DNA of 64,000 nt from an uncultured Gammaproteobacteria bacterium (GCA_965231135.1 OZ246419.1:513488-577487); one strand, 5' to 3'; numbered from the stretch's first letter, positions 21,641-26,625 are shown. Numbers and translations: made by a program. The notes: a model not told the origin generated them from the sequence alone.

Positions 21641-21716
21641 GGTGGCTGTAGCTCAGTTGGTTAGAGCGCGTGCCTGTGGAGCATGAGGTCGGCAGTTCGA
21701 GACTGCTCAGCCACCC
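21641..21716 (+). tRNA. tRNA-His(GTG)
   Basis: Cloverleaf with extra 5' G-1 pairing C73. Anticodon loop CTGTGGA. T-arm GGCAG-TTCGAGA-CTGCT. Confidence 0.85.
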
Positions 21717-23211
21717 ATAACGATTTTTTAGTACCTTCCAACCTCTTAATTATCTCAAAAGATTGACTCAAATACTCTGTTCTAAAACCTGGATATTGAT
21801 AAATTATATTCTGCGGGAATATCGAACTAACGAGCGTCTTTTTCTCAAATAAGTCTTTGCTTTGTGTCCAAGCTTTGTCCAAATTCCATAAAAAGTTATT
21901 CATAAAATTGACTAAAATATCTATGTCTATTTTTTGCAGTTTTGCCTCGCTTTTAATAGTCTTTTTTACTAAGATTTGATCTTCAATTAACTCAAGTTGT
22001 TCTTTGAAAGCTTCATCTGAATAAATTCCCTGTAAGTGCTTTTGTCCGAGTTTCTTTCTTACTTCATATAAGTCGCTTAGTTCTCTGTCTACACCTTTTT
22101 GTTTATTTATTAAGTGAGAATATCTATCTTGCCATTTTTCTTTTACCATTGCAGTAAATAACTGAACAAACTTTTTCTTTGGTTTTACTTTGGTCATAAA
22201 CTGAATAAATTCTTTCTCAAAGTTTTCTTTGGGAACAGAAGGGCTAAAATGAGATTTTTCTAAACAATAATAATAAGGGTATTTGCGTTTTGAAAAGGCA
22301 GCTGTCATTAACTTCCCGCACTTGTCGCAAATGACATGACGCCTTAATGGGAAACTTTCGTTTAATCTGTTATATTTCATGCCGACAGTTCGGGAGCGTT
22401 TATCTATAATCCCCTGAACTTTATAGAATAAATCTTCACTTATCATAGCTTCATGATTGCCGATTTTATCGGTACCCCAATCTTTATTTGCCACATAGCC
22501 GGCATAGAATTTATTTCTAAATAGTCTTTGAGTTTGTTGTTTTTTTGTGATGGGGATAAGTCTGTTATTTTTGTATTTGACTCTAATATTTAGCTTTCGC
22601 ATGACTGGAATAATCGAATCAAGTGTGTAAATTCCCGTTGCCATTTCTTCCCATGCTTTTTTTACTGCCTCAAATTGTTCAGAGTCACGCTCGATAATTT
22701 GTTTCTCGTCTTTTGTTATATTTATGTAGCCGACTGGTGCTTTGCCGTTGGCCCAGCCTGATTCTAATCGTTTTCTCATTCCGTCTTTTGACCTTAAACT
22801 TTTTGTTGCATTATCCAGTTTTGCACTTGCTGCGAGAAGCGTTTCAAGAAATTCACCAGTTGGACTATTTTCGACAGGTTCTGTAACAGATATAATTCTG
22901 ATTCCATATTTTGAGAGCTGTCTTTTGATTGCCAGAAAATCATAAGTATCGCGGGATATTCGATCTATCTTGTAAATAAATACAGCGGATACTTCTTTTT
23001 GATTTTTTCTGCAATCTTCTAACAGCCTTATAAGTTGTGGGCGATTTGTAGTCTTTGCACTTACCCCTTCTTCTCTATAAATTCCATTTTCCACTATCTT
23101 AAATTCTTGTCTTTCAGCTTCTCGTAAACAATAATCTTGTTGATTATCAAGGCTAAAATTAGAAACCTGTTCTTCAGAACTAACTCGCAAATATGCGTAA
23201 GCTTTTTTCAT
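21661..23211 (-). CDS. large serine recombinase (resolvase/invertase N-domain + recombinase domain + zinc ribbon)
   Basis: YLRVSSEEQ catalytic Ser motif and DRISRD. C-terminal CDKCG...YYYC zinc-ribbon. The 3' end overlaps tRNA-His on the opposite strand. Confidence 0.8.
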   Translation of the reverse strand: MKKAYAYLRVSSEEQVSNFSLDNQQDYCLREAERQEFKIVENGIYREEGVSAKTTNRPQLIRLLEDCRKNQKEVSAVFIYKIDRISRDTYDFLAIKRQLSKYGIRIISVTEPVENSPTGEFLETLLAASAKLDNATKSLRSKDGMRKRLESGWANGKAPVGYINITKDEKQIIERDSEQFEAVKKAWEEMATGIYTLDSIIPVMRKLNIRVKYKNNRLIPITKKQQTQRLFRNKFYAGYVANKDWGTDKIGNHEAMISEDLFYKVQGIIDKRSRTVGMKYNRLNESFPLRRHVICDKCGKLMTAAFSKRKYPYYYCLEKSHFSPSVPKENFEKEFIQFMTKVKPKKKFVQLFTAMVKEKWQDRYSHLINKQKGVDRELSDLYEVRKKLGQKHLQGIYSDEAFKEQLELIEDQILVKKTIKSEAKLQKIDIDILVNFMNNFLWNLDKAWTQSKDLFEKKTLVSSIFPQNIIYQYPGFRTEYLSQSFEIIKRLEGTKKSLWVAEQSRTADLMLHRHAL

Positions 23212-23362
23212 AATTGTTTATACTTCTTTACCTTATACTTTCTTTCAAAATGACGCAATCCAACCTCAATAATGCCATTAAAAGTGTTAATAAGTGATTG
23301 AATTTCTTCATCAGGCATATTTTTTGCAAGTTCACCTAAAAACTTTTTAGCGCTGGCTATTG

Positions 23363-23842
23363 TCATATGCGACCTCCACTCGTAGACAAACTTCTTAGAT
23401 TAAGGTCGTTTACTCTCTTTCTTAAAAGTTCCAAACCTTCATTATTCTTTGTATTCTTATTTGTATTCTTACTATTAGAAGTTTCTAACAACTGATATAA
23501 CGAATTTGTAACAGTTCTTATGATATTTTTATCACCTTTATCTTTGCTAAATGTGATAGTTTCATCACAAAAGTCGTAAATATTTGTTTGAGAATAGCCT
23601 CTTCTTCGCTTGAGTATAAATTTATGTTTTTCTAACCATGTGGTATGGTGATTTATAGTTTCTCTTCTTTTACCTAAATCGTTGGCCAACCTTTGTTGCG
23701 AAGGGAACGCTTTGTGGTGACCATATGCATAAGACTTTATGTCAACATAAACTCGAAATACGCAATCAGGTATTTTTCTATTTCTTATTACCCAATTTGG
23801 TATTAGAGTGAAATCGCTTTTTGGCTTAGAATATATACTCAT
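23363..23842 (-). CDS. winged-helix replication-initiator/DnaD-like DNA-binding protein
   Basis: FPSQQRLANDLGKRRETINHHTTWLEKHKFI is a wHTH typical of phage/plasmid Rep N-domains. Confidence 0.4.
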   Translation of the reverse strand: MSIYSKPKSDFTLIPNWVIRNRKIPDCVFRVYVDIKSYAYGHHKAFPSQQRLANDLGKRRETINHHTTWLEKHKFILKRRRGYSQTNIYDFCDETITFSKDKGDKNIIRTVTNSLYQLLETSNSKNTNKNTKNNEGLELLRKRVNDLNLRSLSTSGGRI

Positions 23843-23850
23843 TTTTATAG

Positions 23851-24114
23851 CTAAGATTCTTGATATAATTTGTCTTTTAGTGTCTTGATTGCCGAAATAA
23901 GAACTCGAGCATCTACGAGTACTTCAGAGTTTTGATTTTTTGAAAAATTGAAATTTCGAACCAACTTACGAAGTTTTGCTGTATCAGAAAAAACAAATTG
24001 CGAACGACGATTTCGTGTATTGTTTTTTTCAATGTCCAAAAGCTCCAAGTCTTTTGCAATCAAAAAACAAGATAAATAAAAATTGGCACTTTTGAAATTT
24101 TTATTCTCATTCAT
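23851..24114 (-). CDS. hypothetical protein
   Basis: 87 aa, element-associated. Confidence 0.3.
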   Translation of the reverse strand: MNENKNFKSANFYLSCFLIAKDLELLDIEKNNTRNRRSQFVFSDTAKLRKLVRNFNFSKNQNSEVLVDARVLISAIKTLKDKLYQES

Positions 24115-24191
24115 AACTCAATACTAAATTGAGTTTTTTACTTGTTCTAGTGAGGTGAACTAGTGAAAAGTAGGGATAAATGGGGACAGTT

Positions 24192-24623
24192 TCATTTCCA
24201 CTTGTCTTGAATTGTCATTGATGCGCCCCTGTTTATTATTTTTATTGTTATGGGAAGATTTTGTAAACTCTTTTTTAAATAATAAACATTTCTTCGCATA
24301 GACTGATTTATCACCTTTCGTTTACCTTGTCTGGGGTATTTTCTACCAAATGAATGCTCGTAAAGTTCTTTATACGGCCAATGGGCTAAACTATTTTCGA
24401 AGAGGTAATGAAAAATAGCAAATTTTTCTGACCACGTATTTGGGAAGGTGTGTACTACTTTATTTTTGTAAATAAGCAGCCCCTTGTTATTTTCTGAAAT
24501 TTCCAATTTCCAGTTTCGTAGATTGGTACGCTTAATTTGCATATAGCCAAATAATTCATTAGATTTCCATAAGGGAATTTCCATATTTATATTTATTTGC
24601 TTGTATTTTACACTTATTAACAC
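24192..24623 (-). CDS. OmpR/PhoB-type C-terminal winged-helix DNA-binding protein (stand-alone)
   Basis: FHYLFENSLAHWPYKELYEHSFG...RNVYYLKKSL resembles the trans_reg_C domain. Confidence 0.4.
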   Translation of the reverse strand: MLISVKYKQININMEIPLWKSNELFGYMQIKRTNLRNWKLEISENNKGLLIYKNKVVHTFPNTWSEKFAIFHYLFENSLAHWPYKELYEHSFGRKYPRQGKRKVINQSMRRNVYYLKKSLQNLPITIKIINRGASMTIQDKWK

Positions 24624-24665
24624 AAAAAGCGGATCATATTGATCCGCCTTCTGTTAAATAAACAT

Positions 24666-25109
24666 TTACTGAACTACTTCACAACTATCTATCTTAATAA
24701 CTCCAATGGTTTGCCCTCCAACTGTACCTTTTACTGTAACTGTCTGGCCGTTTTTAAGAGGGATAAGCTCACTTTTGTCTGTTATATTGCAGTTTATTTG
24801 AGTCATTGAATACTGTTTAGTTGCTACATTGTAAAATGAAATTCCGCTATCTGTTATATTTGAGATTTGAGCGCTGAATTGAACTACTTTATTATTCCAT
24901 TTATCTTTTGCGGCAACTTGGTTAGTATCAAAATCATCTGCTATTTGGCTTGCTGTAATCGCTTCTGGTGTGCTTGTAGGCTGTATCAGAGCATTATTAT
25001 TGCTTGTAGTTACCTTACTGTTTTTGCTACTTCCGGCAGCCCCAATAACTCCAAGTACAACTAAAATTACAATAACTCCCAGACATCCGATCCCTAATTT
25101 CTTCTTCAA
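24666..25109 (-). CDS. membrane-anchored secreted protein
   Basis: N-terminal TM/signal (LGIGCLGVIVILVVLGVIGAAG), then beta-rich domain. Confidence 0.45.
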   Translation of the reverse strand: MKKKLGIGCLGVIVILVVLGVIGAAGSSKNSKVTTSNNNALIQPTSTPEAITASQIADDFDTNQVAAKDKWNNKVVQFSAQISNITDSGISFYNVATKQYSMTQINCNITDKSELIPLKNGQTVTVKGTVGGQTIGVIKIDSCEVVQ

Positions 25110-25210
25110 TTTACATCACCTCTTTTCATGCTTGTTTTGTGCCTGATATTTGGCATTCTCGCCACATACAAATTATGGCACAGATGCCAAACTTATTCAA
25201 CTTATAGCTT

Positions 25211-25420
25211 ATGGCTACGATTACAGAGAGATTTGGAAGTAAAGTTAGAAAACTTCGTGAACAAAAGAATATGTCACAACTTGAACTCGCTCAAAAGTCT
25301 GGCCTTGATCTAACTACAATTAACGAAATTGAAATGGGTAACAGAAGCCCGATGTTAAAAACAATCTGGAAAATATCAAATGCATTACAAGTAAAACTAA
25401 GCAGTTTGTTTGAGTTGTAA
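25211..25420 (+). CDS. XRE-family helix-turn-helix transcriptional regulator
   Basis: VRKLREQKNMSQLELAQKSGLDLTTINEIEMG is a Cro/CI-type HTH. Confidence 0.7.
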   Translation: MATITERFGSKVRKLREQKNMSQLELAQKSGLDLTTINEIEMGNRSPMLKTIWKISNALQVKLSSLFEL

Positions 25421-25431
25421 TATATTAACTT

Positions 25432-25833
25432 TCAGTTTGTATTATCAACTATTTCCACTTTTATCCCTGTAATAATTTTTTCAGGCTCAACACTAGCAAA
25501 ATTTGCTTTACCTTCAGTTTTGTCAGCAACAAATTTGAAGGCGTCAAGATCATTTCTTGCTTTAATTATGGCCAGATATGCTAAGTCAGCTGCAACACAA
25601 CGCTTATCCGGGTCGTTTTCTTTCCAAGCCATAAATTCACTAACAGTCAGAGATTTGAAGTAGTTAAGCCAATATGTGAAAGACTGATAATTTTTTGGTC
25701 TGCCGTTGTGGGTTATATTTTCAGGGTGTTCGCCTAGTCCACCAATTCCCTTCGGGTTACGGTTGTAATTTATAATTTTGACTTGTTTCGAAGTCTGTTC
25801 CATGCCTAATTGTATTCTATTTTTTGTTAGCAT
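25432..25833 (-). CDS. phage-associated GRPKN-motif protein (DUF5681-like), paralog of 43840..44244
   Basis: About 45% identity to the 43840..44244 product across shared blocks (HPE.I.HNGRPKN..SF.YWL.YFK.LTVSEF..W..N.P.KR.VA.DLA...I.KAR.DL..F...AD.TEGK). Confidence 0.6.
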   Translation of the reverse strand: MLTKNRIQLGMEQTSKQVKIINYNRNPKGIGGLGEHPENITHNGRPKNYQSFTYWLNYFKSLTVSEFMAWKENDPDKRCVAADLAYLAIIKARNDLDAFKFVADKTEGKANFASVEPEKIITGIKVEIVDNTN

Positions 25834-25851
25834 AGAATTGTATACTGTTGT

Positions 25852-26571
25852 ATGTATTTAACCCACAGCCACCAAGTTTTGCCATCAGTCGGTTTATCGA
25901 ACAATGCAGCAGTTGGGGCAGCAATCGGATCATTTACGGCTTTTATTTTTGGATTGATTGCCTATAACTACACTAAAAAAAGGGAAAAATGGATTACACA
26001 CCATAATGCTTTGGTAAAAACTGAACGACTTGTAAATAGACATTTGAACGAAATTACTGGAAATGTTTTTTTGCTGGAAGGCGCGATTAAAACTTTCGAA
26101 AAAGACGCGTTTAGTGAAAATGTACTAGATCCGTTGGAAAGCCCAGACTATATGATTGATTTCCACAATCTCGAATTGGTAAACACATATCAAGATTACG
26201 AAGCTCTTGTCGACAAAGTTAACCACGACCTGTCTGCGTGGAATAAATCAAACGAAAGACTTTTTAATGTAGCTCTTAGCGGCAAAGTTCCGCTGGCGGA
26301 TATTGATTTAAATCGCAAAGAACTTACAAGAAGATCGCGAGAAATAACGAGTCATTTAGAAGATTTGCTGGAAGAATCTTATACTATTGGCGCTTATGTC
26401 AGAAAGTTTATGGCTGTCGATAAACCAGACTTTTTTGGTCGCTTGGGTCCTACTGAACGAATTAAACTTACAGAGCAAGAAATTTCTAGTGAAAGAAAAA
26501 AATTCGTTAAAGAAAGTAAAGATACGATTGAAAGAGACAAAAATGGTCGACTTAGCAAATACAAGCACTAA
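25852..26571 (+). CDS. hypothetical membrane-anchored coiled-coil protein
   Basis: 239 aa with one TM helix. Start coincides with the right boundary repeat of the putative element. Confidence 0.35.
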   Translation: MYLTHSHQVLPSVGLSNNAAVGAAIGSFTAFIFGLIAYNYTKKREKWITHHNALVKTERLVNRHLNEITGNVFLLEGAIKTFEKDAFSENVLDPLESPDYMIDFHNLELVNTYQDYEALVDKVNHDLSAWNKSNERLFNVALSGKVPLADIDLNRKELTRRSREITSHLEDLLEESYTIGAYVRKFMAVDKPDFFGRLGPTERIKLTEQEISSERKKFVKESKDTIERDKNGRLSKYKH

Positions 26572-26625
26572 AAAACACAATGAAAGCTGCGATAAACGAT
26601 TATTTTGATCTTAATTAAGTTAATG

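Follow-up and report, generated by a model that had tools for sequence, protein, structure and literature searches.

A probable compact serine-integrase element at a tRNA-His gene and the tRNA-associated family of its integrase

A probable integrative element at tRNA-His

We analyzed a 64,000-nucleotide stretch of DNA recorded under an uncultured Gammaproteobacteria bacterium (GCA_965231135.1, OZ246419.1:513488-577487), here called the window, in which the gene of a large serine recombinase (LSR) runs antisense into a tRNA-His gene. We consider it likely that positions 21714-25871 are a 4.16-kb integrative element that was put into the 3' strand of the tRNA-His acceptor stem by its own LSR. 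This LSR belongs to a tRNA-targeting clade of serine integrases with a recognizable site logic, of which the window element is one small, possibly decaying, member. An initial annotation of this DNA had proposed a small LSR-driven element at a tRNA, resembling either an integrative plasmid or a phage satellite. The first part of that proposal is supported by the tRNA association of related integrases in 58 of 80 loci, an element-free tRNA-His site (locus L092), tandem arrays, and variable cargo, whereas the cargo does not discriminate between a plasmid and a phage satellite. The main features are as follows.

21642-21716, plus strand: tRNA-His(GTG), by ARAGORN and Rfam (RF00005, 21642-21715, 62.5 bits); intact, with G-1 at 21641
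21661-23211, minus strand: LSR, 516 amino acids (aa), by Pfam, PHROG, PDB relatives, and alignment A1
21708-21715, plus strand: core of the left attachment site (attL), CAGCCACC, the full 3' strand of the 8-bp tRNA-His acceptor stem, including the G-1:C73 pair
21694-21702, plus strand: T-loop box, AGTTCGAGA, proposed outer recognition motif of the bacterial half-site
25866-25873, plus strand: probable core of the right attachment site (attR), CAGCCACC, with 9/10 matches to CAGCCACCCA

The integrase gene ends inside the tRNA gene

The LSR open reading frame (ORF) and tRNA-His have positions 21661-21716 in common, a stretch of 56 nt that holds the stop codon and about 17.7 codons. The initial annotation had placed an 18-codon overlap in the 3' half of the tRNA; the length agrees, but the overlap is larger than the 3' half and extends back beyond the anticodon. 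The C-terminal tail of the LSR, WVAEQSRTADLMLHRHAL, is tRNA-His translated antisense, and transcription of the LSR runs head-on into the tRNA gene.

ARAGORN, Rfam, and Pfam confirmed the annotated 516-aa LSR with its YLRVSSEEQ motif antisense to tRNA-His(GTG). The motif lies in a resolvase domain (PF00239, 2.4e-31, residues 4-152), a Recombinase domain (PF07508, 31.4 bits, 2.4e-07) scores over its curated cut-off, and a zinc ribbon (PF13408, Zn_ribbon_recom, 23.3 bits, 8.3e-05) falls slightly under its curated cut-off of 25.3; PF13408 is on record for most homologues. The protein matches a PHROG integrase family (4.7e-74). Among PDB entries, phmmer gave partial, low-identity matches to the integrases of TP901-1, phiC31, and A118, as well as to the A118 integrase C-terminal domain. 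When 30 relatives were aligned (alignment A1), residues R9, S11, D83, R84, and R87 proved invariant, and the zinc-ribbon residues C295, C298, C316, and H321 are conserved. With all of the family-invariant catalytic and zinc-ribbon residues kept, the window LSR is intact.

The element-encoded part of the LSR stops at ...KKSLWV. In the reconstructed excised circle, the LSR would be 503 aa long and end in ...SLWVAVG and a stop codon, while the integrated form is 516 aa long with a tRNA-encoded tail. Integration would thus replace AVG-stop by 16 tRNA-encoded residues, exchanging the last three codons only. The protein would differ between the two states because the attachment site of the element (attP) overlaps the integrase stop codon. 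In alignment A1, the conserved protein likewise stops at ...S(L/S)WV and variable tails follow, such as TDGIRTRDxxLHKxxLY, in which IRT is encoded by ATT CGA ACC, the antisense of the T-loop GGTTCGAAT. The tRNA-encoded tail itself is probably not selected, because tails vary freely among relatives. A rule by which the ORF always enters the tRNA in one frame was dropped, as the frame is constant only inside a given clade, with W-V for the His clade and F-G-D-P for the Glu clades.

The NCBI record of the window (locus L003, 10681-12231) has a gene table with no entry at the integrase position; the gene table of the Logan assembly has one. The tRNA overlap may cause the integrase ORF to be dropped from the gene table. 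If so, such elements would be hidden from annotation-based surveys and could be under-counted. The window holds 13 tRNA genes in its 64 kb, several of them in small clusters (30901-60666). None of the other twelve has an adjoining recombinase, and a regular-expression scan of the window for the serine-recombinase catalytic motif returned this integrase only.

Related integrases overlap or abut tRNA genes

We scanned species-representative genomes, one for each species, for relatives of the integrase; 334 turned up, and we fetched 80 of the loci. The 3' end of the integrase gene overlaps or abuts an opposite-strand tRNA in 58 of the 80. Another 12 matches lie at most 150 nt from a contig end, and several of these tails already look tRNA-encoded; at the remaining 10 loci there is no tRNA at the integrase 3' end. 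The recurrence of these genes without a tRNA had been named as grounds for rejecting the element, and the opposite was found. The loci at contig ends include L016, L036, L044, L045, L048, L053, L059, L063, and L077. Their number suggests that assemblies often break at the junction of integrase and tRNA, as expected where occupied and empty sites are mixed or where elements stand in tandem.

The tRNAs used by the family represent 17 anticodon types. All relatives at least 58% identical to the window LSR sit at tRNA-His(GTG), except for one tandem case, and 31 of 54 integrases have the tRNA amino-acid type in common with their nearest neighbor, where chance would give 22%. Even at 66-76% identity, however, two integrases can occupy different tRNAs. 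Pairs at 70-76% identity include L041 and L033 (Leu-GAG and Pro-GGG), and both L060 and L071 and L025 and L066 (Lys-CTT and Gln-CTG). Judging from these comparisons, target switching seems to be frequent and recent in the family. Relatives of the integrase number in the hundreds, and those that carry names are from Woesebacteria, Roizmanbacteria, or Patescibacteria.

An element-free site, tandem arrays, and variable cargo

The initial annotation had called for comparison with relatives lacking the insert, and one such relative was found. In L092, a VanW gene whose product is 67% identical to that of the window is followed by tRNA-His, and there is no recombinase within 10 kb. The gene order GH18-CofD-VanW-tRNA-His is the same as in the window, and the 3' half of the tRNA is identical to the window's; downstream of the tRNA, L092 is not syntenic with the window. 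The other VanW relatives (L093-L096 and L098) have no tRNA-His beside VanW or reach a contig edge, and a metagenome scan with the VanW neighbor returned one truncated locus only.

Tandem arrays occur in L014 and L050. At L014:9911-19897 (contig CAYOFQ010000001.1), a single tRNA-His is followed by two tandem elements. The gene that enters the tRNA encodes a distant serine recombinase of 619 aa with 23% identity, and the family integrase comes after it. The first element carries a Gabija-like pair, an AAA_15/AAA_21 ATPase and a UvrD-type helicase, as cargo. The family integrase reads into the distal arm of this first element, which holds a T-loop-like GGTACGAA 5 bp out of register.

Cargo varies among the related elements. 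The element in L074 carries a Replic_Relax protein, metabolic genes, and a transposase, and others carry mostly small genes with no assigned function. In L108, the closest relative at 72% identity, tRNA-His and the integrase are accompanied by a small partner ORF, a DUF5659 gene, an HTH_17 protein, and a NACHT ATPase; on its far side lies a DUF1749 hydrolase, as in the window.

Attachment sites and the T-loop box

The window has three occurrences of the acceptor-strand octamer CAGCCACC. Two of them, one on each strand, are the tRNA acceptor stem, and the third is at 25866-25873. That it recurs there, as initially reported, is borne out by the sequence. Among relatives, repeats of at least 12 nt at the tRNA end were found in 4 of 42 loci, compared with 0-2 in four control windows. 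The identity block is 15 nt in L015, 14 nt in L043, 12 nt in L030, 11 nt in L032, and 10 nt in L074, and L050 has one as well; in all of these confident loci it covers the 3' acceptor strand.

The distal arm of the confident loci also has a look-alike of the T-loop box (GGTTCGAA, AGTTTGAA), and its distance from the core exceeds that of the genuine T-loop in the tRNA by exactly 5 bp. We scanned for this geometry by requiring a box match of at least 6/9 and a core match of at least 8/10 at every spacing from -3 to +13. A shift of +5 was found in 7 loci, and each of the other shifts in 0-1 loci. The zinc-ribbon motif of LI integrase is located at positions 16-24 in attP and 11-19 in the bacterial site (attB), a 5-bp shift (PMC3783163), and the +5 shift in the related elements equals this published one. 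If the T-loop box is read as the zinc-ribbon motif, the crossover would lie 10-11 nt past the box, at tRNA positions 70/71. In each of the confident loci, the crossover so predicted is contained in the identity block. For the window, the prediction is C21712 A21713 and C25870 A25871, within the octamer, which gives an insert of 4158 bp at about 21714-25871.

We tentatively propose, as a model that may well need revision, that the family reads the universally conserved tRNA T-loop box as the outer, zinc-ribbon motif of attB and carries a copy of it in attP, displaced outward by 5 bp. Such recognition would account for the occupation of different tRNAs by integrases that are 66-76% identical and for the range of anticodon types that the family spans. 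Dyad-symmetry scoring of the reconstructed attP and attB gave no consistent center. A 9-mer, GTATACTGT, common to the window distal arm and the L014 junction, was discounted, as the L014 arm belongs to the element of a different integrase. A BLAST search of the window distal arm against all loci returned AT-rich chance matches only.

A conserved partner ORF and phage- or plasmid-like cargo

Between the two octamer copies lie eight ORFs, all intact and tightly packed. Besides the LSR gene, these are the following.

23208-23366, minus strand: 52-aa helical protein, overlapping the LSR start by 4 nt; no Pfam match
23363-23842, minus strand: 159-aa HTH_36 protein; Pfam HTH_36, 1e-06; phrog_270, 3.1e-09, O-like initiator families
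23851-24114, minus strand: 87-aa DUF5659 protein; Pfam, 1.3e-09
24192-24623, minus strand: 143-aa ORF (130 aa in another gene call)
24666-25109, minus strand: 147-aa membrane-anchored tRNA_anti-like OB-fold protein; PF12869, 4.6e-12; phrog_8545, 2.2e-09
25211-25420, plus strand: 69-aa XRE/HTH_3 regulator; Pfam HTH_3, 3e-16; PHROG repressor families
25432-25833, minus strand: 133-aa glycine-rich NPxGxGG...GRPK-motif protein; phage-type, DUF5681-like

The gene of the 52-aa protein is the sole one co-conserved with the integrase, with tblastn matches in 14 loci. Nearly every locus (L004-L083) has a gene for a homologous small helical protein immediately upstream of the LSR gene, often with a 4-nt overlap. 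These partners are about 50-140 aa long and have a core (...ARxILGExAxxLSDEEIxxxxxxFxxLIxxWLDxFExxxFxGKTLxELL) with a conserved C-terminal stretch, WLDxFE...GKTLxELL, and none belongs to a Pfam family; the window protein is the short form of the His clade. We regard it as a candidate accessory subunit or directionality factor. From this pattern of conservation, the integrase and its 52-aa partner appear to make up the mobile module, with the other genes as variable cargo.

The list of genes in the initial annotation was mostly right, but it left out those of the 52-aa, 87-aa DUF5659, and 147-aa OB-fold proteins. Its Rep-like winged helix-turn-helix (wHTH) protein is the 159-aa ORF, which matches HTH_36 and is similar to the DNA-binding N terminus of proteins that initiate phage and plasmid replication. 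Its XRE regulator, the 69-aa HTH_3 protein, is also correct; this gene is divergent from the leftward operon, a layout that looks like a repressor switch. The label "OmpR-C-like wHTH" for the 143-aa ORF found no support, as there was no significant match in Pfam, PHROGs, PADLOC, or NCBIfam. The 147-aa protein resembles phage superinfection-exclusion (Sie-like) proteins. For the cargo as a whole, PADLOC and NCBIfam added nothing.

The 133-aa protein carries the GRPKN motif as noted initially and belongs to a real family, comprising 179 representative clusters. With a 57-member alignment, AlphaFold (AF2) gave a confident four-helix core at a predicted local distance difference test score (pLDDT) of 77; a single-sequence model was unusable (pLDDT 38). 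Compared with BFVD, the model matched uncharacterized phage proteins (28-36% identity), and there were weaker matches to several DUF5681 proteins. Searches of the family against the PDB were empty by sequence and by fold, and the protein had no match in the viral-contig scan.

No capsid, terminase, tail, lysis, primase, helicase, relaxase, packaging, or transfer gene was found among the eight ORFs with Pfam, PHROGs, and NCBIfam. The element is not a prophage, as capsid, terminase, tail, and lysis genes are all missing. With its annotated products (XRE, Rep-like HTH, DUF5659, Sie-like OB-fold, DUF5681-like), the cargo is phage- or plasmid-like. A helper-dependent phage satellite, similar to phage-inducible chromosomal islands or satellite-type tycheposons, might look like this: an integrase, an XRE gene divergent from a Rep-like operon, a Sie-like membrane protein, and a phage-type DUF5681-like protein are all present, and tRNA-sited tycheposons, in the passages of the paper describing them, include satellite-like forms and a few with LSRs (10.1101/2020.12.28.424599). 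We nevertheless hold a satellite to be quite unlikely. The matches in Pfam, PHROGs, and NCBIfam include no small terminase, capsid-remodeling, primase, or helicase gene, DUF5681 has no known function, and 4.2 kb is far below the size of known satellites. Furthermore, collections of viral contigs contain almost no members of the integrase family, and related elements carry plasmid-type (Replic_Relax), metabolic, or defense cargo. By the definition of a phage satellite as a primase/helicase module plus packaging-redirecting genes, the element does not qualify as one on its Pfam, PHROGs, and NCBIfam matches.

The right boundary and alternative readings

The octamer at 25866-25873 is the best candidate for a tRNA end in the 12 kb downstream, and the window holds no longer copy of the tRNA 3' end. 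It follows the last phage-like gene, beyond which there is an 18-nt gap. We place the right boundary there, as a reading somewhat more likely than not. The initial annotation had the octamer directly before the Ldh_2 gene, which proved incorrect: a 239-aa ORF intervenes and overlaps the octamer. The neighboring gene and the junctions reconstructed from this boundary are given below.

25852-26571, plus strand: 239-aa membrane protein, adjoining the element, overlapping the octamer, and lying between the octamer and Ldh_2
Reconstructed: predicted attP junction of the circular element, TGTATTTAACCCACAGCCACCCATAACGATTTTTTAG
Reconstructed: predicted empty attB junction, GAGACTGCTCAGCCACCAAGTTTTGCCATCAG

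With this boundary, the element-free site is predicted to read tRNA-His, then AAGTTTTGCCATCAG, then the 239-aa gene. The 239-aa ORF has an alternative TTG start at 25879, just past the octamer. Conservation of the protein begins near residue 15 (alignment A2), and a form starting at the TTG would resemble its shorter homologues. The family is small, with 19 matches, and its members lie in unrelated, variable neighborhoods (L085, L087, and L088): beside a gene for type IIG restriction-modification, beside one for an RnlA-like toxin, or joined in operons with uncharacterized proteins of 104 aa and 513 aa. The 239-aa gene could be a defense-island gene. It is probably outside the element and may be a residue of an earlier insertion or an older island. 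Between this gene and Ldh_2, at 26586-26610, ATAAACGATTATTTTGAT resembles the integrase-side attL arm ATAACGATTTTTTAGT; the likeness is probably due to chance in AT-rich DNA and could be the scar of an older insertion.

An alternative that we judge unlikely is that the boundary is elsewhere, with the element including the 239-aa gene and ending near 26572-26625 or beyond, and the octamer coincidental. The variable contexts of the 239-aa relatives beside restriction-modification and RnlA-like genes are in its favor, as are the overlap of the octamer with the annotated start of the 239-aa ORF and the fact that an 8-nt match is expected by chance. However, the 12 kb downstream offers no better tRNA-end match, the octamer is centered on a crossover predicted independently from the family geometry, and the conserved part of the 239-aa protein begins after the octamer, with the TTG at 25879 fitting the shorter homologues. 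Serine integrases need a 2-bp core only, and short identity is expected after integration, so a missing long repeat is not a difficulty for the octamer boundary.

Several observations weigh against an integration by this LSR ending at the octamer. In a control in which 24-nt probes were compared with 10 kb, the median longest chance repeat was 8 nt, which the octamer equals. Because any 24-nt probe finds a median 8-nt repeat, the octamer has no weight by length; the repeat proposed to mark the element end is present but carries no significance from its length alone. The window distal arm resembles the T-loop box at 4/9 positions only, at a 6-bp and not a 5-bp shift, and the His clade offers no close relative with a confident attR. 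The 239-aa gene is of an island type, which leaves room for an element that reaches further to the right or is itself lodged in an older island. When the L092 tRNA trailer was aligned to the window, the attR flank gave no significant alignment and was not the best match. Finally, the predicted attP junction is absent from viral contigs, where no excised or circular form was found and where, as said, the family itself is nearly missing.

Some of these points would also fit a decayed, immobile remnant of a larger prophage or island whose distal attachment site was lost or mutated. Such a remnant would account for a length of only 4.2 kb with no structural, packaging, or transfer genes, for a distal arm lacking the T-box mimic found in seven related elements, for a sole flanking repeat of chance length, and for a Rep-like protein that corresponds to the N-terminal part of initiator families only. 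Against this, none of the eight closely packed ORFs is disrupted, the integrase retains every family-invariant residue, the conserved partner ORF is intact with its 4-nt overlap with the integrase start, and related elements of 1.6-4 kb with longer repeats exist. We think a remnant rather unlikely, yet to be taken seriously, and continue to prefer an element integrated by its own LSR at the octamer.

A model of integration and its implications

In the model that we propose, the integrase binds two sites: attB, which is the tRNA gene, and attP, which is on the circular element and overlaps the last codons of the integrase gene. Strands would be exchanged across a core of 2 bp close to tRNA positions 70/71. 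Identity over the 8-10 bp that surround this core (CAGCCACC[C/A]A) would rebuild the tRNA 3' end, so that the tRNA stays intact, and the original tRNA end would be displaced to 25866-25873. Once integrated, the integrase ORF would have no stop of its own and would run through the antisense tRNA for 16 extra residues. The element might use this swap of the C terminus to detect its integration state, or it might use the head-on orientation of integrase and tRNA transcription to do so. Because it has no structural or transfer genes, the element would need a helper or would move only as naked or vesicle DNA.

To our knowledge, mobile elements of Patescibacteria are barely known. The clade described here, with its 334 relatives in species-representative genomes, targets tRNA 3' ends in these bacteria, and its elements carry defense, metabolic, and plasmid-type cargo; they may thus be a main route of gene flux in the reduced genomes of Patescibacteria. 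If the T-loop-box model is true, the family would be a natural series of retargeted integrases. It would provide many close integrases with different, predictable 40-bp targets, useful for understanding specificity and for engineering.

Comparison with known systems

Serine integrases are usually described as inserting into protein-coding genes, and insertion at tRNA genes is generally associated with tyrosine integrases. In our literature search we came across neither a paper on tRNA-sited serine integrases of Patescibacteria nor a description of this integrase family. The word tRNA is absent from the largest survey of serine integrases that was searched.

The phage-type LSRs (A118/LI, TP901-1, phiC31, Bxb1, and SPbeta SprA) have the same domain order of resolvase, recombinase, and zinc ribbon, and likewise have short identity between attB and attP. 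For LI integrase, the outer motif is 5 bp further out in attP than in attB, as in the related elements here. The family differs from these LSRs in targeting a tRNA gene and not a protein-coding gene, in an attP that overlaps the 3' end of the integrase ORF, in the conserved small upstream ORF, and in its Patescibacteria hosts. Sequence identity to characterized LSRs is low, and the phmmer matches are partial.

Islands with tyrosine integrases (P4-like and pSAM2-type) are similar in their insertion at, and restoration of, the tRNA 3' end, in an integrase that adjoins the tRNA, and in variable cargo. The catalytic family and mechanism are different. Tyrosine integrase systems usually leave direct repeats of 15-60 bp, and the identity here is 8-15 bp.

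In archaeal integrases of the SSV type, attP is within the integrase gene, and integration splits the gene into two non-functional parts, according to the abstract (PMC7253208). As in those integrases, the attachment site here lies inside the integrase ORF and the product is altered by integration. Those enzymes are tyrosine recombinases, whereas the enzyme here is a serine recombinase for which the exchange affects no more than the last three codons and leaves the catalytic protein whole. The window LSR is not a self-splitting integrase of the SSV type.

The nearest precedent found for tRNA-adjacent LSR elements is the tycheposons of Prochlorococcus. According to the passages on them, these are likewise small cargo or satellite-type elements beside tRNAs, with site-specific integrases and replication genes, and form additive islands. 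Among 937 tycheposons reported in those passages, 910 use tyrosine recombinases and 27 carry an LSR (10.1101/2020.12.28.424599). The elements described here belong to a different host phylum, and they show an antisense overlap of integrase and tRNA and, in seven loci, a T-loop mimic, features that the tycheposon passages, retrieved by a term search, do not mention.

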